DNA of 32,000 nt from Tannockella kyphosi (GCF_021054785.1 NZ_CP088239.1:600001-632000); one strand, 5' to 3'. Counted from the stretch's first letter, positions 17,785-32,000 are shown. The notes: a model not told the origin generated them from the sequence alone. Made by a program: numbers and translations.

Positions 17785-19584
17785 ATGAAAGATAATAAAA
17801 AATTATTTCAAATATATACAATTGTTTGGATTGTATTCTTTCTTGTACTAGTTGCTACCTTATTTAGAATGTATGGGGATGAACATATTATTAATTATAC
17901 TGGTATTGTGAGAGGGTGTACTCAAAAAGTTATTTTAGGTGAAACACAAGGTATTGAGGATGATGAGCTAATAGCTTATGTAGATCAAGTTATTTATGAT
18001 TTACAATCAGCTGAGGAATATAGTTCTTTTGATCTTCAGGATACTTATTATCAAGAACAACTTATTTATATTGATGATTTATGGTGTCAGATAAAAGAAG
18101 AGATTGAAGTTATTCGTTTAGAAGGAAGTTCTAATGATATTTATACGATTAGTCTTTTGCATTATGAAATATCTGATGATTTAGCTCATTATGTGGAAGA
18201 TACTTCAGCTAAAGAATTAAGTGAGTTTTTTTATTTGTTTGGAATATCTTTTGGGTTTGCGATTGTTTTATTAATTTCTTTGTTTTATCATAATCGTAAT
18301 AATTTGAATAAAATAGCAATGAAGGATAGTTTAACAAATATTTATAGTAGAGATGGATTTTCAAAACAATCGAAACATCTACTACAAAATTCATCAAAAG
18401 AACAATATGTTGTACTAGCTATCGATATTGTTGATTTTAAAATATATAATCATCGTTTAGGTCATAGTTTTGGAGATGAGATACTTTGTTTGATAGCTAG
18501 TTGTCTAGAAGAATTTGTAGGTCAAAATGGAATATGTTCCAGAATTAATGGTGATAACTTTAAGGTTTTTATTATAAAAAGAGATCATATGATAGAGGAT
18601 ATTAATACATATATAGTAGAAAAAATGCGTGAAAAAGGATTTTTGATGCTTGCCAAGGATATTCATTTTATATATAGTGCTTATGAGATTATTGATAATA
18701 CAGAAGAAATAGAAGAAATATTAGGAAAAGTAAATTTAGCTCATTCTTATGCAAAAATAATGAATGCGAGAGAAGTAGTTTGGTATGATAGTTCTTTTAT
18801 TAATCAAGTGCAACAAGAAGATGATTATACTTCTCGATTTAATGAAGCTATTGTAAATAAAGAATTTAAAATCTATTTACAACCTCAACTAAATCTAGAA
18901 ACAATGCAAATTAATGCAGCAGAAGCATTAGTTAGATGGGAAGTAGAAGAGGGAAAGATTATTTTTCCTGATTCATTTATTCCTTTGTATGAAGGGAAAG
19001 GACTTATTCCTTTATTAGATTATTATATTTTAGAAGAAGTTTGTAGTTATCTTCAAGAGATTATGCTAGAACATCAAACATTTAGTATTGCGATTAACTT
19101 TTCTAGACTAACGTTAAGTACGGATCATTTTGTTACTTCTTTTTTAGAAATAGTAGAAAAGTATGGAATAGATGCATCTTGTATTGAAATAGAAATCACA
19201 GAAACATCATTAAATGAATTAAGTAATGAAGTCATTGAACAATTAGAAATACTTTCTAACAAAGGTTTCAAAATTGCAATGGATGATTTTGGGGCAGGAT
19301 TCTCTAATTTGTGTTCTTTAACAGATATACCACTTAATATCCTTAAATTAGATAAACAATTTTTATGGAAAATGGATAGTTCAGGAAGTGTATCGGAAAT
19401 TATAGAGAGTGTTGTTAAAATGGCACATAATTTAGATTTAAAAGTAATATGTGAGGGTGTTGAAACAAAAAAACACTTATCATATTTAAGAACAGTTGGA
19501 TGTGATATAGCTCAAGGATATTTTATTAGTAGGGCAATACCAACAAAAGAATTTACAGAAAAATATCTTAGCACTAAAAAATAG
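17785..19584 (+). CDS. Membrane-anchored GGDEF(degenerate)-EAL protein, probable c-di-GMP phosphodiesterase
   Basis: Two TMs flank a ~120-aa outside loop. GGDEF-domain blocks DSLTNIYSRDGF and DIVDFKIYNHRLGHSFGD are present, but the signature reads NGDNF (nt 18547-18561). EAL-domain residues are intact: EALVRW (18922-18930), NFS, EITE, DDFGAGFS, KLDK, EGVET, QGYF. Confidence 0.9.
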   Translation: MKDNKKLFQIYTIVWIVFFLVLVATLFRMYGDEHIINYTGIVRGCTQKVILGETQGIEDDELIAYVDQVIYDLQSAEEYSSFDLQDTYYQEQLIYIDDLWCQIKEEIEVIRLEGSSNDIYTISLLHYEISDDLAHYVEDTSAKELSEFFYLFGISFGFAIVLLISLFYHNRNNLNKIAMKDSLTNIYSRDGFSKQSKHLLQNSSKEQYVVLAIDIVDFKIYNHRLGHSFGDEILCLIASCLEEFVGQNGICSRINGDNFKVFIIKRDHMIEDINTYIVEKMREKGFLMLAKDIHFIYSAYEIIDNTEEIEEILGKVNLAHSYAKIMNAREVVWYDSSFINQVQQEDDYTSRFNEAIVNKEFKIYLQPQLNLETMQINAAEALVRWEVEEGKIIFPDSFIPLYEGKGLIPLLDYYILEEVCSYLQEIMLEHQTFSIAINFSRLTLSTDHFVTSFLEIVEKYGIDASCIEIEITETSLNELSNEVIEQLEILSNKGFKIAMDDFGAGFSNLCSLTDIPLNILKLDKQFLWKMDSSGSVSEIIESVVKMAHNLDLKVICEGVETKKHLSYLRTVGCDIAQGYFISRAIPTKEFTEKYLSTKK

Positions 19585-21546: not shown

Positions 21547-23466
21547 ATGGGCAAACGTAAAATAATATTAATAATTAATGGGGTCTTATTTTTAGGACTA
21601 GTTATTTTTACATATGGAACTATTTTAACACTATTAAATGATGATTCGATTTCTATTAGTGATAAAAATGAAATTGCTTATATTGACTTTTCAACGGAAG
21701 TAGTTGAATTGCAAAGCGATATTTTTGAATGGTATCCTAGTGTATTATACACAAGTGAAGATTTTGAATATGATGTAATTGCAATCGCAGATGATGATGC
21801 ATTATATGGAACATATCGAGTCACTTTGGATTTAGAAGAAGGCGAAACATATATGATAGCTGGACAAAGTGCTGACTATGCTCAAAATGTATGGATTAAC
21901 GGAGAACTTTTGTCACAGGTAGGTGTTGTTAGTGATAATGTTGATGACTTTGTAGCTGAGAAAACAGAGTATTCTATTACATTTGTTGCAGGTGAGGAAG
22001 AAGTTGAGATTATTATTCAAAGTGCTTATTTTAACCATGTTAATGGCGCAGTAGAGTCATTGTACCTAGGGGATCCAGATTTAGTGGTGGATTTAACAGT
22101 AACTTATTATATGCATGAAACTTATATTTTAGGAGCTTTAGCTTCGATAGGATTATTTTTTATAGGAATGTATGCTTTCTATTATAAGGATGTTAGTTTA
22201 TTATTCTTTGGTCTTGCTTGTTTTGCTGTATCATTAAAAACAGCATTGTATGGAAATTCGATTATGTTAATATCACCATCATTAAATTGGTATCTTGGAC
22301 ATCGGTTAGAGTGGATTTCGGTATTTGCTTATTTTTTCTGTTTATTTATGTACTTAGATGCAGTATTTCATTGGATGATTAATAAAATAGCAATGATAAT
22401 AGGTTTATCTATATTAGTGGGATTATCTATGTTCTATATGGTTACTCCTTCTTATATATATTCTAGTTATTTAAGTGAAATGGTAGTAGTATTAACATTA
22501 ACTATTTTATTTTTACTTGCAAATGGAGTTTATACATTTATAAAATATGATGGTCTTAAAACAAAAACTCAATTTTTAACTCTACTTTCTGTTATTCTTT
22601 TATCTTTGGCAGCCGGATTAGAACGTTTATTATATCCAAATATAGTTATTAATATTTTAGCACCTACAACCTTAGTAGTAATCTTTATTAATGCAATCAT
22701 TTTTACTTTTAGTTTTACTAACACAGATAAGCAATTATTTATTGCCTCTCAAAAAGAGGCAGAGATTAATAGTAGAAATAATATGTTAGAGAACTTGAAT
22801 TTACTAAAAAATGACTATATGAATACAATAGCTCATGAATTAAAAACTCCTCTAGCGGTTATTACTGGATACTCTCAATTAACGCAATTGCAAATCAATG
22901 AAAATAAAATTAATGAGGAAACAATAGCAAATTTAAAAACAATATCCAATGAAGCAATGCGTTTGTCAAACTTGGTTTCTAAATTATTAACAGTAACATT
23001 AGATGCACATTCTTCAACAGAAAAAACAAAACAAAACTTATATCAATTAATAGAAGAAATGTCCACTATTTTAAAGCCTATTTTAGTTAAAAAAGGGAAT
23101 ATTATTATTAATGATATTGAAGCTGATATTAATGTTAGAATTAATTATGAAATGATTTTACAAGTTTATATCAATTTGGCAGTAAATGCGAATCGACATT
23201 CTAAATCAAGTGTTATTACTTTTAGTAATGATTCAGTAATTGATAATAGGGTATTAGTTCGTGTGGTTGATACGGGAACAGGAATTAGCGAAGAAATTCT
23301 ACCACATATCTTTGAAAAAGGATTTAGTCATGATGGTAGCAGTGGTCTAGGTTTAGCAATTTGTCGTGATATTGTAGAAATGCATAAAGGCGAATTACAG
23401 GTAGAAAAGACAGGTCCATTAGGTACAAGTTTTGCTTTTACATTACCGATATATATTGATGAGTAG
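21547..23466 (+). CDS. Sensor histidine kinase with 7TM-receptor (7TMR-DISM-like) input module
   Basis: An N-terminal anchor and a ~165-aa extracytoplasmic domain precede seven consecutive hydrophobic helices (aa ~195-400). Then come H box IAHELKTPLAVITGY, N box NLAVNANRH, G1 DTGTG and G2 GSSGLGL. Confidence 0.88.
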   Translation: MGKRKIILIINGVLFLGLVIFTYGTILTLLNDDSISISDKNEIAYIDFSTEVVELQSDIFEWYPSVLYTSEDFEYDVIAIADDDALYGTYRVTLDLEEGETYMIAGQSADYAQNVWINGELLSQVGVVSDNVDDFVAEKTEYSITFVAGEEEVEIIIQSAYFNHVNGAVESLYLGDPDLVVDLTVTYYMHETYILGALASIGLFFIGMYAFYYKDVSLLFFGLACFAVSLKTALYGNSIMLISPSLNWYLGHRLEWISVFAYFFCLFMYLDAVFHWMINKIAMIIGLSILVGLSMFYMVTPSYIYSSYLSEMVVVLTLTILFLLANGVYTFIKYDGLKTKTQFLTLLSVILLSLAAGLERLLYPNIVINILAPTTLVVIFINAIIFTFSFTNTDKQLFIASQKEAEINSRNNMLENLNLLKNDYMNTIAHELKTPLAVITGYSQLTQLQINENKINEETIANLKTISNEAMRLSNLVSKLLTVTLDAHSSTEKTKQNLYQLIEEMSTILKPILVKKGNIIINDIEADINVRINYEMILQVYINLAVNANRHSKSSVITFSNDSVIDNRVLVRVVDTGTGISEEILPHIFEKGFSHDGSSGLGLAICRDIVEMHKGELQVEKTGPLGTSFAFTLPIYIDE

Positions 23467-23538: not shown

Positions 23539-24207
23539 ATGGCTAAAATATTATTAGTAGAAGATAACTTAGATATTATGAATTTTAATACTTCTTTATT
23601 AACTATGAAAGGATACGAAGTTCTGTGTGCGACTACTCTCAAGAAATGTGGAGAGTTATTATCTTTTCATCAAGTTGACTTAATTGTCTTAGACATTATG
23701 TTGCCAGATGGAAATGGTTTAGATTATTGTAAGGTGATTAAAGAAAAAACAAATACACCAATATTAATGTTAAGTGCATTGGGAGAAAATAAAGATGTTA
23801 TTGCTGGATTGAAAGCAGGGGGAGATGATTATTTAGCAAAGCCCTATGATTTTGAAATATTTCTAGCAAGAATAGAAGCAAGATTAAGATCTGTAGAAAC
23901 TCAAAATCGCTTTATTTATTTTGGAAACCTAAAGTTAGATACAGAATCGATGACTGCTAATTTAGAAGGTGAAGATTTATATCTTACTAAAAAAGAATTT
24001 TCTGTTTTATTAGTATTAGCCAAGAATCCTAATTCTATTGTAGATAAAGAGAAACTTTATGAATCGGTATGGGGTGTTCCAATGTCAGGAGATAGTAGTG
24101 CTTTATGGACTGTTATTTCGAGATTAAAGAAAAAACTAAATGCAGAATTATCTGGTGTCACTATCTCTTTACAACGTTCAGAAGGCTATATTTTAGAAAA
24201 ATTTTAA
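23539..24207 (+). CDS. OmpR/PhoB-family response regulator
   Basis: Receiver features: ILLVEDN, LIVLDIMLPDGNG, MLSA, KPY. The winged-helix C-terminus reads LYLTKKEFSVLLVL...ISRLKKKL...GYIL. Confidence 0.92.
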   Translation: MAKILLVEDNLDIMNFNTSLLTMKGYEVLCATTLKKCGELLSFHQVDLIVLDIMLPDGNGLDYCKVIKEKTNTPILMLSALGENKDVIAGLKAGGDDYLAKPYDFEIFLARIEARLRSVETQNRFIYFGNLKLDTESMTANLEGEDLYLTKKEFSVLLVLAKNPNSIVDKEKLYESVWGVPMSGDSSALWTVISRLKKKLNAELSGVTISLQRSEGYILEKF

Positions 24208-24315: not shown

Positions 24316-24332
24316 TAAGGGAGGTGGTTAAA

Positions 24333-24869
24333 TTGCATTATATAAAGCGAATTTATAACTGCATATCATCTATTATGTTAGTTTGTTTACTCTTACTTCT
24401 ATTTTTATTAATAGGAGTGAGGTTGTTTGGTTATTACCCTTATGTTGTATTATCTGGCAGCATGGAGCCGTTATATCAAACAGGATCTATGGTCTATGTA
24501 GAAGAAGTAACAGCAGAAGAAATTGAAGTAGGAGATGTTATTACTTTCTATATGATAGATAACGCAACTATAGTAACTCATCAAGTAATAGAAATAGATG
24601 AAATAAATGGATATTATTATACTCAAGGCTTAGCCAATGAAACAGCAGATGGATTACCAACAACAATAGAAAGTATTATTGGTAAATCAAGCTTTTCTAT
24701 CCCATATCTTGGGTTTATCGTAGCATATTTAACAACACCACCATGGAGCTACATCTTAATAGGATTAGTGTTGATGTGGATGATAGGTGTTCATATGATT
24801 GATCTTTGGGAGAAAGATAAAAAAGAAAACATGAATCAACTAAATAGAAAAGATTTAAAAGTGTATTAA
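24333..24869 (+). CDS. sipW: Signal peptidase I, SipW (ER/archaeal, S26B) type
   Basis: N-terminal TM; Ser box VLSGSMEP (24453-24470); His box VTHQV (24576-24587); C-terminal TM anchor WSYILIGLVLMWMIGV. TTG 24333 lies 8 nt after the SD AAGGGAGG, whereas the tracked GTG 24324 overlaps the SD. Confidence 0.85.
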   Translation: MHYIKRIYNCISSIMLVCLLLLLFLLIGVRLFGYYPYVVLSGSMEPLYQTGSMVYVEEVTAEEIEVGDVITFYMIDNATIVTHQVIEIDEINGYYYTQGLANETADGLPTTIESIIGKSSFSIPYLGFIVAYLTTPPWSYILIGLVLMWMIGVHMIDLWEKDKKENMNQLNRKDLKVY

Positions 24870-24911: not shown

Positions 24912-25709
24912 ATGAGAAAATATGCAAAACCAATTACAGCGTTATGTTTAGTGGTGTTATTAACGATAGGAGCTACAATAGCTTACTTAACAGATCAAAC
25001 AGATGAAATTACAAATAGCTTTACAGTAGGAGAAAATGTAGATATTGAATTAGTAGAAACAGATAATGATTATAGTTTAATACCAGGTGAAACTTTCACA
25101 AAAGACCCAACAATCTCAGTTACAGGGGATGATGCATATATCTTTGTAGAAGTAATTGAAACACTGCCAACTGCAGCATTAAATAATGATGAATTCTCAT
25201 TTGCTGATTATGTAACTTATGAAATTAATGGTTCATTTTTAGTAGATCCGTTAGTTGAAGGGGGTTCATTCTATGCTGGAGGATATACAGCTGATGCTAT
25301 AACAACAAATTGGTATTGGAGTTTAGTTAAAACTTCTGCTTCAACTGTAAGTTATTACGAAGGAGAAGCGGGTGATACTTATACAACAATTACTTATGTA
25401 TATGCTTTAGTAGATGGAGATGGATATTTACTTTCAGTTTCAAGTTTAGATCAGATGACTAATCTAGACGAATTAACAAACACTACTGATTTGTATGTTG
25501 CAGCTGAGTTTCCAATTTTATTAGATGATGAAGTAACTATCAATGATAAATTAACGCAAGCAATGCTTAATTTACTGCTAAATAATAATACAACTGAAGA
25601 TAATACGGACACTCATACAGTAGACTTATCATTTATAGGATATGCTATTCAAAGTGATAACATTCTAAATACGGAAAATTTAGAAATAGTATTTAGTTAT
25701 ATAAAATAA
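24912..25709 (+). CDS. TasA/camelysin-like exported protein with SipW-cognate signal peptide (paralog 1)
   Basis: The N-terminus MRKYAKPITALCLVVLLTIGATIAYLTDQTDEITNSFTVGENVDIELVE matches the h-region plus A-Y-x-T-D...N-x-F pattern of TasA/CalY-class SipW substrates. It also shows LIPGETFTKDPTISV and DDAYIFVEV blocks. It lies immediately after sipW. Confidence 0.75.
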   Translation: MRKYAKPITALCLVVLLTIGATIAYLTDQTDEITNSFTVGENVDIELVETDNDYSLIPGETFTKDPTISVTGDDAYIFVEVIETLPTAALNNDEFSFADYVTYEINGSFLVDPLVEGGSFYAGGYTADAITTNWYWSLVKTSASTVSYYEGEAGDTYTTITYVYALVDGDGYLLSVSSLDQMTNLDELTNTTDLYVAAEFPILLDDEVTINDKLTQAMLNLLLNNNTTEDNTDTHTVDLSFIGYAIQSDNILNTENLEIVFSYIK

Positions 25710-25742: not shown

Positions 25743-26342
25743 ATGCGAAAGAAAAGAATATACGCTAGTTTCATTTGTCTAATGATATTAGCAGGCACAA
25801 TCGGTTATCAAACAGTTGCATATTTTGTAAATGAAAGTACGACAACAAATGTTATAACCACTGGTAATGTACAAATGGAGTTATATGAAGAGATAAAAAC
25901 AGATGGGATAAATTGGACATTAGTTTCTACAGATGAAAGTATTTCAATATTACCAGGTGATACAGTAGAACAAATTGCTTATATCACTAATACAGGATCT
26001 GAGGATTTTTACACAAGAGTATCAATCAAATTTTATATTGAAGATGTAAATGGCGAGTCGTTAGATTCTAGTGTAGTTAGTTTGAATATCGATGATGAAA
26101 AATGGGTAGAAGATGAAGATGGTTGGTATCGATATGTAAATATTGTGAGATCTGGAGAAACAACAGAGGATCCAGTGTTCAGTGAAATCTCTTTCTCTTC
26201 AGAAATGGATAATGATTATATTGGATCTACTATTACTTTAGTAGTAGGATCTCAGTCAGTGCAATCTGAATATAATGAATTTGAATCAATATTAGAAGTG
26301 CAGGGATTCCCTGAAGTTACAGGAAATGAGGTGAAGAAATAA
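25743..26342 (+). CDS. TasA/camelysin-like exported protein with SipW-cognate signal peptide (paralog 2)
   Basis: The N-terminus is ...LMILAGTIGYQTVAYFVNESTTTNVITTGNVQMELYE, followed by ILPGDTVEQIAYITNTGSEDFYTRVSI. Size is 199 aa. Its stop overlaps the next ATG (TAATG). Confidence 0.75.
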   Translation: MRKKRIYASFICLMILAGTIGYQTVAYFVNESTTTNVITTGNVQMELYEEIKTDGINWTLVSTDESISILPGDTVEQIAYITNTGSEDFYTRVSIKFYIEDVNGESLDSSVVSLNIDDEKWVEDEDGWYRYVNIVRSGETTEDPVFSEISFSSEMDNDYIGSTITLVVGSQSVQSEYNEFESILEVQGFPEVTGNEVKK

Positions 26343-29300
26343 TGAAAAAGAAAATAGCATCAATAATATTATCTCTTATATTAGCAATAACAAGTATCTT
26401 TAGTGCACCAATGCTAATGAATGTTCTTGCAGATGATCAAACGACAGGAGGAGATGCAACAGAAAACAATGAAGGAATTTCTGTTAGTAAGACAGTTACT
26501 TTTTCTTATGATACTGATGATAATGGATTAGCAAGTGAAGATTCTTATGAATATACCTTGAATTTAGATGTTTTTACAACAGGAGAAGTATCAATAACGG
26601 AAGATGAGACAGCTCCAGTTGATATTATTCTAGTTCTAGATCAATCTACAAGTATGATGTGGCCTGCTGATCAAGCAGAAAACTTAACTTATGGTGATAT
26701 TAATATATCACAAGATAGTACTGAGAATCTAAAAAATAATGTAGGTATTATTGATGGAGAATACAAACTTATAACTGATGTTGGTTCAGGAGAGTCAAGT
26801 TATGAATGGGTTCAAGATACATCAATCACAGTTTCTCCTATTGAAGAATCAGCTAGTGTGACTTATGGAGATTGGGTTAGTGAAACAGATACTGTAACGA
26901 TTGAGTCATTATTAAATTCATCTAATAATGAATGGACTAGTTTTTATAAAGCAAACTATGGTTATCTTTATAGCGAAAGTCGTCAAAAAGACCTTGTTGA
27001 GGCTGTTTTGGATTTCATTTTATCATTAGAAACTGATGTTGAGCATCGTATCTCTATCGTGACATATCACAACGATGATACTACTGAATATAGTTTAAGT
27101 GGTTTAGTTGATACAGATGGGGATAATACGCTTGATGTAATAGAAGAGGTACTATCTTGGGTTACTGAGACAAATACATCTTCTGGAAACACATATGAAG
27201 GTGGAAATGCTGATGGTACGACTACCTTTAATTTACAACATAGTACATTAATTGCATTAGGTATAGAAACAGCAGAAGATATCTTATATGATGCTAAATA
27301 CGACGGAACAACAACAAACTTAGAAGAGCTTTATGAAGGTACTGGTAGAACACAACTTTCAGTAATCTTTACAGATGGGATACCAACTCAAATTAATTCC
27401 ACAGGTGATGGATCAGATGATTCATCCGCTAGTACATTAAACAATGTTAATCGTGCATTAGCAGCATCTGCTAGCATGAAACAAGATGGTGTTACTGTAT
27501 TTACCATTGGTATGCTAGATGGAGTATATAGTGATTATACGAATGATGCGAATACTAATAGTACTTCATCATACTACAATGATGGCTATACAACATCTAA
27601 TGGACGAACTACCTATTATATTAATGATGGAAATACGTTTATTAGTTCTTTCTTAGATTTATTATCTAGTAATTATGTAAATGCTAGTACTTATATTTCT
27701 AGTAGTTTCCCTAATTCGTCTGGTATTTATGATGTTGGAACTGCTACAAGTTACACTATTTCTACTACTTATGCTAAAGAAATAGCATCCTATAATGATG
27801 ATGGAACTGTAAAAAGTTATACAGAATATTACTATCCGATTGATACTAATAGTAATGACGTAATCGTATCAGATAGTTTGGCAAGTGTATTTACTAAAGT
27901 TGCTGGCTCATTAACAACATCTGCAACTTATGAACTAGATCAAACAACACAAGTTCGTGATGTTATGACTTCAGAATTTATAATACCAGAAAATTCAACT
28001 ATTAGCTTATATATAGCTTACTGTGAAGGGAAAAATAGTGAGGAGGATAAGGATTATAGCAGTAGTTTATTTGATAGTGGTTACTATACATGGAGTGAAC
28101 GTGTATTAATTTATGACCAAGATGGAAACACAAATGAAATCAATGAAAATCTATCAGTAACTACACAAACGGTGTATGTTAATGATCAAGATGATTCTAT
28201 TGTTTATTACGCTGATGAAGTTAGTACTGATAGCAATGGCACTTATATTATGATAGACGGATTAAGAGTAGACTTATATGAAACACAATTAGTAACAGTA
28301 CAAGGGTTTGACTTTAACAAATATTATGTAACTACTGTTGATAAAGATAATGATGAAGCAAATGGTGAAGATTTTGGTGCAAAACTAATTATTGAATTTG
28401 ATATTGATCCAGTTAGTTCTACTGTGGGTGATAATATTACTAGTGATGGTACATTGGGTGGTAATGCAATTGATACCAATACTTCTGCATCAGGAGTTTA
28501 TATTTATGATTCTTCACATGCAACTTCTGATAGTAGTGGGTATTATTCCTTAGAATCATTTCCTGTACCTAATGCAGATATTCCTATAGATGTAACTGTA
28601 GAAACTACAGATCAAACTATTTATTTAGGTAATGCAATTTCTATCGTAGATTTAGTAGAAATTGATGGAGAATCAATAGATGGAAATAGTAATAAATATG
28701 TTGATATTACTTATGTTTTATATCAAACACAAGAATCAAATAAAGATGAATATGACAAATATACTACGGGTGAAAGTAGCGTTTATGTAGCTTATGATGA
28801 AGAGAAAGATGAATATTACAAATACGCTTTAGATAGTGATAGCAATAGAATTGAACTTTATAGGGTATATATTCCAGCAGGTCAATCAGCAAGTTCAGCA
28901 GATGGTGATAGCTATAATGTAGATACATTAATAACTCCTAGTGATGATACTGATTATCTTGTAGAAATTACTATTTCTCCTCTAACAGAAGGTACAGTTG
29001 GGACAACAACAGTAGAATCTCAATTACTTCGTGTTTATGTATTACATCCTACAATTGAAGTAAATAACATTTGGGTAGATTATGCAACTCCTGTAGATTT
29101 AAGACAAGATAACATTCTATCAGTAGTAGATCCTGATGATATGTCGACGTATGATACATTAGTAACTGATAATATCGCATGGGAAACAACAAATAGTTAT
29201 TCATATGATATTCCTGAATCAACAATAGAAGCACCAACGGTAAACTTCGGTTATACGGCAAGGCGTGGTATCGAATATACAGCGGACGAATTCTTTGAAA

Positions 29301-30979
29301 TAGGAGTTCGTGAAGATAAAGAGTTCTATATTTCTTCGATGACTATTAAATCTTCCGACGGATATTCTAATACTACAAGGTATGAATATTCTCAAGAAGA
29401 AGTAACATCATTTGGAGTATATATTAATAAATATGATTTAGAAATTAGTAAAACAGTAAATGCAGATGATTATGATACATATTCTCAATCATTTATCTTT
29501 GATTTAAGTTATACAGATGCTGAATTTATAACATCTCAAAAATACTATCAAGATGATAATGGTTTAACAGTATTTGAAAGTTCAGACAATGACACAGTGG
29601 ATTTATACATCGATACTACTGGATACTATAGTGGGGAAACAGAATTTGCTATTTACACAAATATTAATCCTCAAGATGATAGTGTATTAGATTCAACATA
29701 CACGGAGTATTATAATATTACGCATCAATTCTTTAGTGAAACGGGTGTTCAAAATACATCAGGAAATTATATTAATGAATCAAATTTCACTATTTCTTAT
29801 AATGGGGCAACATATGAAGCTCGTGTTTTATGGGAAGATGAAGAAAACGAAATACCTTTATACGAAGCAACAGTAATAGATTATGAAAAAACATTAGAGG
29901 TAATTATAGATCCAGATATGTCTAATGTAGAAACCGTAGAATGGACTGATTCTACCGGAACACGTTATTATACTTTTAATGTATTAGTAACTGATTTATA
30001 TTGTGGTGTAGAGCTAGACATTGTTGAAGATACTAATTGGTCTTGGCGTTATGAACCAGGGTTTACAACAACTACTACAACTCAATACGCTGATTATGTA
30101 AGTGGTGATGAAGCAACAGACTTAGACTATGTTACACAAAACATTTATGAATTTGATATAACTGATGGAAAAGTAAGTATTAGTGTTTATACTACTGAAG
30201 TTGACGAAACGGAAGTGACTTATGTTATTGCAAATGTAATAACGGAAGTAGACAACAGTTATCAAGTTCGTACTGTAACTTATGGAAATGTTCAAGCAGA
30301 TATAAGTGATTATTTGGAGGGATTTAATGCTGGAAACTTTGTAAGTATTGATAATTTCATAACTGAAATGTCTGAACAAGGAGTTTATCCAGTGTTTGAT
30401 ACAACATCGGTTATGAGTGAAGATTCTAGTGGAAACATTACACAAACAACTACAACTGAAACATCTGCTTATAAAATTATTGATTATGATGAAGAAATAG
30501 TAGCAAGAATTGAAGGGGATAAAGTAGGAGATAATGATGGTATTCTTGAATTAGGAGAAGGATTATTGGGAACTTACCAAAATACTGATTTTGAAAAAGA
30601 TAATTATATAAATTATGAATATGCATATTACTTAACACAATATACATTTGATTCTATTGCAACAGTAACAACTGCTAAAGATGGATCATCAGCTATGATT
30701 TTAGTTACTAATAGTACTGATTATTTAGATAAAAACGAAAGTGATGATTATTCTGATTGGACAAGAATTGATACTGAGCAATATACATATGAAGATAACA
30801 ATGGAAACTTTGATTTAGATTCAAGTAATACAACAACTATGTATGCACCTGTATCAGCAGTATACTTTGACATTAATGAAGTAGATATTGATGTATATAA
30901 TACATTAATGAATGAATATTGGTTATCATATAGCGAATTAGCTCAAAACACATTTTATGAATTAAGTGATCCAAGATAA
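26342..30979 (+). CDS. Very large (1545 aa) secreted acidic protein with N-terminal von Willebrand factor A domain; adhesin-like
   Basis: Sec-type signal peptide (predicted cleavage after VLA, aa 30). MIDAS DxSxS is present as DIILVLDQSTSM (D100 = nt 26639), with later SVIFTDGIPT and VTVFTIGM vWA strands. The rest is D/T/Y/S/N-rich with only 2 Cys. There is no LPXTG and no C-terminal hydrophobic segment. Confidence 0.85.
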   Translation: MKKKIASIILSLILAITSIFSAPMLMNVLADDQTTGGDATENNEGISVSKTVTFSYDTDDNGLASEDSYEYTLNLDVFTTGEVSITEDETAPVDIILVLDQSTSMMWPADQAENLTYGDINISQDSTENLKNNVGIIDGEYKLITDVGSGESSYEWVQDTSITVSPIEESASVTYGDWVSETDTVTIESLLNSSNNEWTSFYKANYGYLYSESRQKDLVEAVLDFILSLETDVEHRISIVTYHNDDTTEYSLSGLVDTDGDNTLDVIEEVLSWVTETNTSSGNTYEGGNADGTTTFNLQHSTLIALGIETAEDILYDAKYDGTTTNLEELYEGTGRTQLSVIFTDGIPTQINSTGDGSDDSSASTLNNVNRALAASASMKQDGVTVFTIGMLDGVYSDYTNDANTNSTSSYYNDGYTTSNGRTTYYINDGNTFISSFLDLLSSNYVNASTYISSSFPNSSGIYDVGTATSYTISTTYAKEIASYNDDGTVKSYTEYYYPIDTNSNDVIVSDSLASVFTKVAGSLTTSATYELDQTTQVRDVMTSEFIIPENSTISLYIAYCEGKNSEEDKDYSSSLFDSGYYTWSERVLIYDQDGNTNEINENLSVTTQTVYVNDQDDSIVYYADEVSTDSNGTYIMIDGLRVDLYETQLVTVQGFDFNKYYVTTVDKDNDEANGEDFGAKLIIEFDIDPVSSTVGDNITSDGTLGGNAIDTNTSASGVYIYDSSHATSDSSGYYSLESFPVPNADIPIDVTVETTDQTIYLGNAISIVDLVEIDGESIDGNSNKYVDITYVLYQTQESNKDEYDKYTTGESSVYVAYDEEKDEYYKYALDSDSNRIELYRVYIPAGQSASSADGDSYNVDTLITPSDDTDYLVEITISPLTEGTVGTTTVESQLLRVYVLHPTIEVNNIWVDYATPVDLRQDNILSVVDPDDMSTYDTLVTDNIAWETTNSYSYDIPESTIEAPTVNFGYTARRGIEYTADEFFEIGVREDKEFYISSMTIKSSDGYSNTTRYEYSQEEVTSFGVYINKYDLEISKTVNADDYDTYSQSFIFDLSYTDAEFITSQKYYQDDNGLTVFESSDNDTVDLYIDTTGYYSGETEFAIYTNINPQDDSVLDSTYTEYYNITHQFFSETGVQNTSGNYINESNFTISYNGATYEARVLWEDEENEIPLYEATVIDYEKTLEVIIDPDMSNVETVEWTDSTGTRYYTFNVLVTDLYCGVELDIVEDTNWSWRYEPGFTTTTTTQYADYVSGDEATDLDYVTQNIYEFDITDGKVSISVYTTEVDETEVTYVIANVITEVDNSYQVRTVTYGNVQADISDYLEGFNAGNFVSIDNFITEMSEQGVYPVFDTTSVMSEDSSGNITQTTTTETSAYKIIDYDEEIVARIEGDKVGDNDGILELGEGLLGTYQNTDFEKDNYINYEYAYYLTQYTFDSIATVTTAKDGSSAMILVTNSTDYLDKNESDDYSDWTRIDTEQYTYEDNNGNFDLDSSNTTTMYAPVSAVYFDINEVDIDVYNTLMNEYWLSYSELAQNTFYELSDPR
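26615..27530 (+). other. vWA (MIDAS) domain region within the 1545-aa protein, apparently with a long insertion
   Basis: About 235 residues separate the DxSxS strand (26639-26653) from the TDG strand (~27370). That is longer than a minimal vWA fold and is reminiscent of arm insertions in Gram-positive pilus tip adhesins. Boundaries are approximate. Confidence 0.55.
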
Positions 30980-30993
30980 TAGGAGGGGATACA

Positions 30994-31779
30994 ATGAAAA
31001 CAACTAATAAAATAAGAATGAAAATAATAGAAAAATTCTTTCATAAAAACAAAAAAACAATGATGTCCCTTTGTTTAATAGTAATGTTCTTGGTGAGTGC
31101 TATTGGCCTAACTATTGCATATAAAATAGGAGTTAGTGATGAAATTGAAAACAACTTTGAAACACCAACAATTGTTACTCCTATTGAAGAAGAATTTGAT
31201 GGAGTTGTTAAAGAAAGTGTAACAGCAAGCAATTCATCAGATAGTGATGTGGATGTTTATGTAAGATTAAAATTTGTTGTAAATACAATGGAAGTTATCT
31301 ATGGAGATAATGGATATCCTATTCTAATAGATGAGCTAGGAAATGAATATAGTACGACTATAAATGAAGATGGGGAAGTTGTAGTATCTGATGAAAATTA
31401 TGACTCAACAACAGCGAGTACTTTGACTTATAAAACAGGTGCTCTTGTAGCAACTACTAGTTCATTTGATGAAAATGGTTATCTTGCTAATCATGCTACA
31501 ACTATTACAAATGTATTTGATGTAGAAGGCTTAAATGATACTGATTGGATTAGTGATGGAGATGGTGTATATTATTACAAATATTCTTTAGCTCCAGGAG
31601 AAACTGCGAATACATTAGTTGAAAAAATTTATCAAGAAGTATTTTATGATGGAGTAGTAGTAACTTTGACAATTATTGTGGATAGTGTTCAAGTAGATGG
31701 TTTAGAAGATTCATGGCAAGATGTAAGTTTGACGACTGATAGTGATGATAATCCAGTTGTTTATTTAGATAAAGAGTAG
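30994..31779 (+). CDS. TasA/camelysin-like exported protein with variant SipW-type signal peptide (paralog 3)
   Basis: A long basic n-region precedes the h-region SLCLIVMFLVSAIGLTIAYKIGVSDEIENNFETPTIVTPIEEEFDG and DVDVYVRLKF. A strong SD AGGAGGGG is present. Confidence 0.65.
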   Translation: MKTTNKIRMKIIEKFFHKNKKTMMSLCLIVMFLVSAIGLTIAYKIGVSDEIENNFETPTIVTPIEEEFDGVVKESVTASNSSDSDVDVYVRLKFVVNTMEVIYGDNGYPILIDELGNEYSTTINEDGEVVVSDENYDSTTASTLTYKTGALVATTSSFDENGYLANHATTITNVFDVEGLNDTDWISDGDGVYYYKYSLAPGETANTLVEKIYQEVFYDGVVVTLTIIVDSVQVDGLEDSWQDVSLTTDSDDNPVVYLDKE

Positions 31780-31790
31780 GAGGAAGAAAA

Positions 31791-32000
31791 ATGAAGCATA
31801 AAAAGGTTTGTTTAAGTGTTATAGTAACTATGATATTACTAGTTATTACTTCTACCTCTTCCTTTGGTTTAACTTCAACACCAGAAGTAATATTTGATAC
31901 TAGTAGTGGAATGTTTAGTTATAACAATGCAAAAGTAAGCAGTAGCACAGGATGTCCTGATTTATTTACTGATATAAAAGGGGTAATACCTGGAGACAGT
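31791..32000 (+). CDS. 5' part of a further exported protein of the cluster (truncated by the window edge)
   Basis: SD AGGAGGA is followed by ATG 31791. My translation is MKHKKVCLSVIVTMILLVITSTSSFGLTSTPEVIFDTSSGMFSYNNAKVSSSTGCPDLFTDIKGVIPGDS. It has a signal peptide and a DLF...K..IPGD block resembling the TasA NLKPGD strand. Confidence 0.6.
   Translation, partial: MKHKKVCLSVIVTMILLVITSTSSFGLTSTPEVIFDTSSGMFSYNNAKVSSSTGCPDLFTDIKGVIPGDS

Follow-up and report, generated by a model that had tools for sequence, protein, structure and literature searches.

How is a very large secreted protein that bears an adhesion-type head, and no anchor of its own, joined to the structures around it? This question is raised by a gene in a 32,000-nucleotide (nt) stretch of Tannockella kyphosi DNA (NZ_CP088239.1:600001-632000, assembly GCF_021054785.1), called the window below, with positions counted from its first nucleotide. 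The gene encodes a giant protein with a von Willebrand factor A (vWA) domain and lies among genes for small TasA/BsaA-like subunits and a SipW-type signal peptidase. Fibres of the SipW/TasA/BsaA type form one of the major scaffolds of biofilms in Bacillota and archaea. We propose, with a probability of roughly 55%, that the giant serves as the adhesin on a donor-strand fibre of the SipW-dependent TasA/BsaA type, to which it would be attached through its C-terminal tail. The earlier note on this DNA, made by a model from the sequence alone, had suggested that any retention on the cell would occur through assembly with the flanking TasA-like subunits. This idea holds as far as a functional tie is concerned: the vWA gene shares a cassette with such subunits in most of 80 further genomes, and the cassette vWA proteins are anchorless.

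No LPXTG-like motif was found in the giant, which has no hydrophobic stretch apart from its signal peptide and thus no hydrophobic tail at the C-terminus (…NTFYELSDPR), in agreement with the earlier note; a cryptic anchor on the giant itself, with neither an LPXTG-like motif nor an extra hydrophobic span to account for it, was therefore ruled out. What had been overlooked is that this C-terminus, though no anchor, carries a conserved motif. In the cassette vWA proteins, it takes the form W-L-x-G-x-S-x-x-(A/V)-x-N-(I/V)-F and directly follows the last SpaA-like strand (…v-t-f-x-N). The strict pattern matched 52 of the 74 cassette vWA proteins and none of five relatives lacking TasA-like neighbours, several of which (e.g., P0017) end in an LPXTG-type signal or a membrane span. 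The tail occupies the position where the LPXTG-anchored relatives bear their sorting signal.

Sequence logos aligned on the conserved Asn matched between the vWA tails and the mature N-termini of the TasA-like proteins, with an aromatic residue at -9, an aliphatic one at -8, A/V at -2, N at 0, a beta-branched residue at +1 and F/Y at +2, and with the same 9–10-residue spacing. In BsaA, V33 and F37 of the donor strand enter the core of the neighbouring subunit, and N35 is joined to K74 by an isopeptide bond (PMC11580942). A scoring matrix was derived from TasA-like donor strands only, with the Asn column omitted, and every Asn of 68 cassette vWA proteins was scored with it. The C-terminal 30-amino-acid (aa) segment ranked best in 21 of the 68 proteins, and it was within the top 5% in 33 of them, compared to 3.4 expected. 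For the giant, the segment around N1536 reached +8.3 bits vs. -6.4 bits for its next best Asn, a lead of 14.6 bits. This resemblance to donor strands, read from sequence, is suggestive. The donor-strand-like tail of the vWA proteins is new: no description of it, nor of a vWA tip on TasA-type fibres, was found in the literature searched.

The genomic setting of the giant was followed across species by scanning one genome per species with the conserved peptides of the family, which gave 193 relatives or more; 80 of the loci were retained. Open reading frames (ORFs) were called on 85 loci and on the window (86 sources; three loci are duplicates) and searched with the window’s own proteins. SipW was found in 62 of these sources, TasA-like ORFs in 75–78, and a sortase, adjoining the last cassette gene, in 22. 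The cassette was found in about 70 of the 80 further genomes, and the recurrent order was SipW, two to six TasA-like subunits, the vWA protein, a TasA-like subunit of ~190 aa and a TasA-like protein with a sorting signal, often followed by a sortase; loci L001–L004 show this same order. The wider vWA family comprises at least 6,703 clusters at E ≤ 1e-10, mostly from gut-type Clostridia, and all source-named ones are called “VWA domain-containing protein”.

The small subunits of loci L001–L085 and of the window fall into four positional orthologous classes with differing donor-strand motifs. Where the gene lies at least two positions upstream of the vWA gene, the subunit combines a SipW-type signal and an N-x-F donor strand with the lysine of a PG…KDP motif, which is kept in this class only. 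In the window, subunit T1 has a SipW-type signal (…ATIA↓YLTD, with the arrow at the cleavage site), a donor strand Y25…I33-T-N35-S-F37 and Lys64 within PG…TKDP; by analogy with BsaA, the lysine of this motif could join an intermolecular isopeptide lock. The class directly upstream of the vWA gene has the donor N-V-I-T-T-G, with a KDP-like motif in 1 of 61 members, and T2 of the window likewise carries N-V-I-T-T-G and no KDP lysine. Directly downstream, the donor of the class is P-V-x-N-x-F-x-P; the corresponding subunit of the window has the SipW-type signal …LTIA↓YKIG and the donor strand …I-E-N-N-F-E-T-P. Members of the last class have an ordinary signal peptide, and only 4 of 65 contain a donor motif. 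No TasA-like body was detected in the vWA proteins: jackhmmer profiles built from four small subunits matched 268–337 ORFs, none of them a vWA protein.

The window ends inside the last cassette gene, whose product was taken in full from an identical 11.4-kb metagenome contig (L005). This TasA-superfamily protein has an ordinary signal peptide, lacks a donor motif, contains a DLFTDIKGVIPGD motif and ends in ILETGD, a membrane span and KKESKEKQK, a non-canonical sorting signal. In its orthologues, a C-terminal APQTGD, PPQTGD or LVQTGD precedes a span and a basic tail; two of them pass the LPXTG_anchor model TIGR01167, and the consensus x-[P/I]-Q-T-G-[D/Q], with LIQTGQ among its forms, was observed in 50 of 65 last-gene proteins. 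From these sequence features, the last cassette protein is probably the anchor of the fibre, and ILETGD may be processed by a sortase. A non-canonical sorting signal downstream had been named in the earlier note as something that would count against retention through assembly. Such a signal is present on the last small subunit and not on the giant, where it would supply the missing anchor of the assembly rather than refute the idea.

With regard to the giant itself, seven relatives with 39–59% identity align across essentially its whole length, which indicates that the ORF is a real gene. Its product is identical to an NCBI protein called only “vWA domain-containing protein” (T. kyphosi; Erysipelotrichia, Coprobacillaceae). 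It is among the five longest of the 83 family proteins analyzed, whose median length is 989 aa. The signal peptide consists of MKKK, a hydrophobic core and NVLA↓DD, and the homologues keep a V-x-A↓(D/E/A) site. The earlier note had described it as an ordinary Sec signal unlike those of the neighbours, which agrees with the TIGR04088 match and the motif counts that mark the flanking small proteins as SipW-cognate: the SipW-type signal motif occurs in 5 of 83 vWA family members vs. 141 of 172 upstream small subunits, and 78 of the 83 vWA proteins have ordinary signal peptides. Composition and repeat scans likewise bore out a strongly acidic protein rich in Tyr, Thr, Asn and Ser, with two Cys and no tandem repeats. 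The mature protein contains 12.5% T, 10.8% D, 10.4% S and 8.6% Y, with 282 D+E vs. 55 K+R, and Cys at 561 and 1221 only; no DNA tandem repeats were found in the gene, and internal protein similarity is weak and composition-driven. A cytoplasmic or regulatory BatA-type vWA protein was ruled out by the signal peptide and the context, and a repeat-type adhesin by the lack of repeats in the giant.

One claim of the earlier note fared less well. The TAATG overlap that joins the stop of the T2 gene to the start of the giant had been taken to argue for a stoichiometric relationship. The overlap is conserved only within the giant subfamily, and shorter relatives lack it (in L003, the gap is 16 nt), so that the inference of stoichiometry is weak. 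In a scan for promoters and terminators, promoter-like matches were below the shuffle expectation and terminator-like matches were at expectation.

The positions of the metal ion-dependent adhesion site (MIDAS), which had appeared complete in the earlier note (DQSTS and FTDG), were confirmed. Its five residues, D100, S102, S104, T302 and D345, are invariant across an 11-sequence alignment spanning down to 28% identity, and T302 and D345 match the MIDAS Thr and Asp of CMG2 when aligned through the relative P0011. Family-wide, DxSxS is present in 80 and TDG in 81 of the 83 members. Six of eight close homologues match PF00092 (best 2.7e-9). The relatives P0010 and P0011 match it at ~1e-20 over the full model and the giant-family profile at E ~1e-42 to 1e-44, and BLASTP between P0011 and the giant gave 9e-26. 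Sequence and profile searches of the giant against the PDB returned nothing significant.

The N-terminal structure was examined in an AlphaFold2 (AF2) model of aa 1–1020, in which the vWA core and aa 530–900 have a predicted local distance difference test score (pLDDT) of about 65–88. The best PDB match of this model in Foldseek was PitA, the pilus islet-2 tip pilin (7w6b, E = 3.8e-12, 952 alignment columns), and the vWA domains of TRAP, CMG2, VWF-A1, TEM8 and LapA were matched at probability 1.0. The spacing from D100 to D345 is 245 aa vs. ~120 in P0011, which amounts to ~125 inserted aa, mostly aa 105–210 (pLDDT below 50), close to the ~130 aa given in the earlier note. An insertion at this DxSxS-side position is common in the family, with a median D-to-D spacing of 203 aa. 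The likeness to tip adhesins of the RrgA/GBS104 type drawn there is reasonable at the fold level, given the PitA match and the family-wide vWA insertions. By its residues and fold, the giant carries a vWA/MIDAS domain, which is predicted to bind a cation and a ligand.

An N-terminal strand with the invariant K50, located before the vWA domain, probably belongs to the first sandwich. The first part of the stalk is common to relatives of 800–1000 aa, and BLASTP against relatives of 830–910 aa showed that the giant has the same architecture lengthened by insertions. The relative P0009 matches DUF5979, DUF7601 and SpaA over the domain homologous to the last domain of the giant. Here, a search for SpaA/CnaB-type modules and isopeptide triads, as proposed in the earlier note, yielded a conserved Lys/Glu/Asn set: K1037, E1229 and N1520 are invariant in the alignment, the same motifs recur family-wide in motif counts, and we infer that they are placed as expected of an intramolecular isopeptide triad. 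This domain is split by inserts specific to the giant subfamily, at ~aa 1060–1210 and 1250–1510. A HMMER search with aa 780–1545 against 1.84 billion representative proteins gave 12 matches at E ≤ 1e-3 and 5 at E ≤ 1e-30, and the non-giant matches were confined to aa ~830–1075. Since only the non-insert part was matched outside the giants, the inserts are orphan sequence, and rarity is limited to them (5 representatives in 1.84 billion).

Taken in order, the proposed mechanism would begin with Sec export of the giant and removal of its ordinary signal peptide. The vWA head, which appears nested in an immunoglobulin (Ig)-like sandwich as in sortase-pilus tip pilins, would use its MIDAS for cation-dependent ligand binding. 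The long, very acidic all-beta stalk would end in the SpaA/DUF5979-like domain, probably stabilised by a K1037–N1520 isopeptide bond with E1229 as catalyst. The last ~15 residues (W1527-L…A1534-Q-N1536-T-F1538) would imitate a subunit donor strand and probably insert into a TasA-like acceptor groove. Given donation by the tail only and the lack of a TasA-like domain, the giant would be the single donor-only end of the chain. The SipW-processed subunits would both donate and accept strands, and the last cassette protein would only accept one, its sorting signal and membrane span tying the fibre to the envelope. As a protein that only donates, the vWA protein would lie at the distal end, presenting its MIDAS head on the long acidic stalk. 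More tentatively, cassette vWA adhesins in general may be joined to fibres by a C-terminal donor-strand mimic that replaces LPXTG, with its invariant Asn (N1536 in the giant, equivalent to BsaA N35) perhaps locked to an acceptor Lys by an intermolecular isopeptide bond that forms spontaneously. If true, this would be a sortase-free covalent mounting of an RrgA/PitA-like adhesin on a donor-strand fibre, with one donor-only protein (vWA) and one acceptor-only protein (the sorted anchor) per cassette setting the polarity of the fibre. The features of the locus and of the giant are listed in the table.

Table. Features of the fibre locus and of the giant vWA protein (positions in the window, nt).
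Feature	Position	Strand	Basis
Sensor histidine kinase, multi-span membrane N-terminus, first gene of the locus	21547..23466	+	HisKA and HATPase_c on the identical gene in L005
OmpR-type response regulator	23539..24207	+	Response_reg and Trans_reg_C
SipW-type (archaeal/ER-type) signal peptidase I	24324..24869	+	TIGR02228 sigpep_I_arch 1.2e-29, above cut-off; NF046067 SipW 1.2e-23
TasA/BsaA-like “major”-class subunit (T1)	24912..25709	+	TIGR04088 1.6e-5, above cut-off; weak Peptidase_M73; phmmer homologues in 66 sources
TasA/BsaA-like minor subunit (T2), class directly upstream of the vWA gene	25743..26342	+	TIGR04090 BsaA family 2.2e-8, below cut-off
Giant vWA protein, 1545 aa, 172 kDa, net charge -227	26342..30979	+	ORF call and homologues
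Ordinary Sec signal peptide, aa 1–31, predicted cleavage VLA↓DD	26342..26434	+	Sequence reading; V-x-A site kept in homologues
vWA domain, ~aa 92–525	26615..27916	+	Invariant residues, Foldseek, PF00092 in homologues, CMG2 alignment via P0011
MIDAS D100/S102/S104 (DQSTS, aa 100–104)	26639-26653	+	
Variable inserted arm of ~105 aa (aa 105–210), between the DxSxS loop and helix alpha-1	26654..26971	+	Absent from P0011, variable among homologues
MIDAS T302	27245-27247	+	
MIDAS D345 within FTDG (aa 343–346)	27368-27379	+	
All-beta stalk, ~aa 526–1029	27917..29428	+	AF2 strands with pLDDT 70–88 over aa 530–900; BLASTP vs. P0011 and P0009
Split DUF5979/SpaA-like C-terminal domain, aa 1030–1523	29429..30910	+	Conserved K, E, N; P0009 domain matches
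K1037 (first strand DLEISK1037, at aa 1030)	29450-29452	+	
E1229 in the IVEDTNWSWRY strand, at aa 1227	30026-30028	+	
N1520 in the last strand DIDVYN1520, at aa 1515	30899-30901	+	
Conserved, donor-strand-like C-terminal tail Y1526-W-L-S-Y-S-E-L-A-Q-N1536-T-F1538	30917..30955	+	Motif, logos, scoring test
TasA/BsaA-like minor subunit, class directly downstream of the vWA gene	30994..31779	+	phmmer homologues in 69 sources; orthologues match TIGR04090
Last cassette gene, 5' part only, cut by the window end; 241 aa in L005:10494-11219	31792..32000	+	Full sequence from L005

The closest known system is the biofilm-matrix operon sipW-bsaA-bsaB-bsaC(-bsaR-bsaS) of Clostridium perfringens, which includes the two-component pair bsaS/bsaR and in which a bsaC mutant forms fragile pellicles (PMC7395162) and has less BsaA polymer. 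Like the giant, BsaC (CPE0517) is a secreted vWA protein encoded in an operon with SipW, TasA-like proteins (BsaA/BsaB) and a two-component system, and both operons are linked to a sortase gene or to a small subunit that bears LPXTG (PMC11580942, PMC7395162). Further, the NCBIfam BsaA-family model scores below threshold on T2 and on orthologues of other subunits, and the Coprobacillaceae are listed among the lineages with BsaA-like proteins. However, BsaC has ~70 kDa compared to 172 kDa for the giant, and the gene order differs, since the gene of the giant is flanked by those of two minor subunits and precedes that of the anchor subunit. Among the window ORFs scanned, no type IV pilus genes, on which secretion of BsaC depends, were found. 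The match explains the context rather than the mechanism; a degenerate DNA pattern of the published BsaC antibody peptide had no match in the genome contigs. By context, the giant is a BsaC-like partner and an unusually large member of a common family.

Several observations weigh against the giant being a tail-attached fibre adhesin. The BsaC of C. perfringens occurs in the supernatant as an unattached monomer, and its presence there depends on type IV pili; polymerisation of BsaA does not require it, and the BsaA oligomers of that species seem to be anchored in the membrane and not in the wall. The ILETGD of the putative anchor departs from LPXTG, and no sortase is encoded in the 32-kb window or on the identical contig L005. 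The giant itself had no match at E ≤ 0.1 in Pfam and NCBIfam, so that its vWA assignment rests on homologues and fold. As to the tail, 22 of the 74 cassette vWA proteins are missed by the strict pattern, and when a donor-strand hidden Markov model (HMM) was run against the vWA proteins, the tails scored at most 5 bits, with competing matches inside the vWA domain and the best match within the last 40 aa in just 15 of 75 proteins; because these short-HMM scores are weak, the tail evidence is suggestive and not proof. The model of aa 1–1020 is only moderate (mean pLDDT 59), and that of aa 780–1545, made with a 10-sequence alignment, reached a pLDDT of 44.8, was unusable and was kept out of the fold search; for this reason, both the isopeptide triad and the placement of the tail are read from the sequence. 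Finally, the putative link between the giant and the small subunits comes from sequence and synteny.

With BsaC unattached in the supernatant and not needed for BsaA polymerisation, a free cross-linker and a TapA-like nucleator both keep some probability. The former is the stronger of the two, although we consider it unlikely. The giant would then be released into the medium as a matrix protein, in the way that BsaC seems to be, and would act as a cross-linker of fibres, cells, polysaccharide or host ligands by means of its MIDAS head and acidic stalk; its conserved tail would simply be part of the fold of the last domain, and the giant would be no defined fibre subunit. This would be in line with its lack of an anchor and with the strongly acidic character of the whole cassette, which fits the cation-mediated gelation reported for AbpX. 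It is less easily squared with the position of the vWA gene between two dedicated minor subunits, which recurs across most loci, or with a donor-strand-like tail that is conserved specifically in the cassette proteins, at the sorting-signal site of the LPXTG-anchored relatives.

An assembly initiator is a decidedly weaker candidate. According to a statement quoted in PMC11821415, TapA nucleates TasA fibres by strand donation, and the tail of the giant, given its resemblance to donor strands, might similarly provide the first strand that nucleates TasA-like polymerisation, with vWA adhesion secondary or absent. The reduced amount of BsaA polymer after bsaC deletion would fit such a role, whereas polymerisation of BsaA in Escherichia coli without BsaC does not, and an invariant MIDAS and an exposed stalk of ~1,500 aa are hard to explain for a pure nucleator. 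Moreover, nucleation overlaps with the role of the giant as a tail-attached adhesin rather than excluding it. Least probable is a stand-alone surface adhesin, merely co-regulated with the fibre genes and retained non-covalently through its acidic region, which would bind wall polymers or cations, or else through a motif that escaped recognition: the search of the giant turned up no canonical anchor, it is extremely acidic and translational coupling implies co-expression only, but the Pfam/NCBIfam scans revealed no known wall-binding module, anionic wall polymers would repel an acidic protein unless cations bridge them, and the conserved gene order exceeds mere co-regulation.

The adhesin reading was also compared with other fibre systems. 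The sortase-pilus tip adhesins (PitA, RrgA, GBS104/PilA and EbpA) likewise have a vWA/MIDAS head with inserted arms in Ig-like domains and a CnaB/SpaA-type stalk; in the giant, the conserved Lys/Glu/Asn set lies in the last domain. In contrast to them, the giant has no LPXTG and a donor-strand-like tail instead of a sorting signal, the locus has no pilin-motif partner or class C sortase, and the neighbours of the giant are SipW-processed TasA-superfamily subunits. Among donor-strand fibres, the Tafi model of haloarchaea comprises a TafC tip, a TafE adaptor, a TafA core and a TafF anchor, and AbpX loci encode predicted tip and LPXTG-anchor proteins; the architecture proposed for the giant cassette matches both published models. 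With TapA (Bacillus subtilis), TafC/TafE/TafF and AbpX, it shares a heteropolymer whose major subunit is accompanied by minor or adaptor subunits and by a tip or nucleator, with a terminal anchor that takes up a strand and a dedicated signal peptidase I. However, the tips of those systems have a TasA-like domain and a lectin or laminin-G-like head, while the giant has no detectable TasA-like domain and its putative strand is C-terminal. The chaperone–usher adhesins FimH and PapG offer an analogy only, that of a two-part adhesin ending a donor-strand fibre, with adaptor genes adjoining; folds and secretion are unrelated, and FimH is acceptor-only where the giant would be donor-only.

The window and the ~70 parallel cassettes suggest a concrete architecture composed of one or more major subunits, two positional classes of minor subunits, a tailed vWA adhesin and a sorted anchor. 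A role for the vWA family would annotate thousands of genes and define a class of Gram-positive adhesive appendages distinct from sortase pili. The giant’s own contribution is mainly its size, its extra ~500 residues being the orphan sequence described above, and the donor-strand-like tail is the part most worth pursuing.

Some further observations concern the locus and its relatives. The start of SipW in the window is ambiguous: the longest ORF begins with GTG at 24324 (181 aa), and the gene call on the identical contig L005 begins at the equivalent of 24423 (148 aa). A terminator-like hairpin is predicted at 24391-24422, within the longer ORF. A GGDEF-EAL protein of cyclic di-GMP (c-di-GMP) turnover is encoded at 17785-19584, three genes upstream of the fibre locus and on the same strand as the kinase; c-di-GMP-type signalling genes have been reported near AbpX/TasA-type loci.

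The giant subfamily seems to owe its diversification to duplications inside one genome or community. The metagenome-assembled genome FM_49_G121_V of a Clostridia bacterium (L006–L009) carries four or more paralogous cassettes with a giant vWA gene, each on a contig of its own, and run SRR26879383 holds the cassette of the window (L005) together with a second, 46%-identical one (L002). Four proteins of ~1,700 aa (P0012, P0014, P0015 and P0018) have segments in common with the giant family and match PF13859 and PF13088, which we take to be sialidase/BNR-type domains; in these proteins, stalk modules akin to those of the giants would be joined to another kind of head. Upstream of the cassette in L003 (96-5457), three proteins of ~470–540 aa have SipW-type signals (…GSTFAWFTDS) fused to a pectate-lyase-like beta-helix, and the SipW/donor-strand N-terminus is thus apparently also attached to enzymes. 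Lastly, the actinobacterium Gordonibacter pamelaeae (L075) has a complete copy of the cassette, with SipW, two TasA-like proteins, the vWA protein and two further TasA-like proteins, the last ending in MPRTGD, which indicates that the cassette is not confined to Bacillota.

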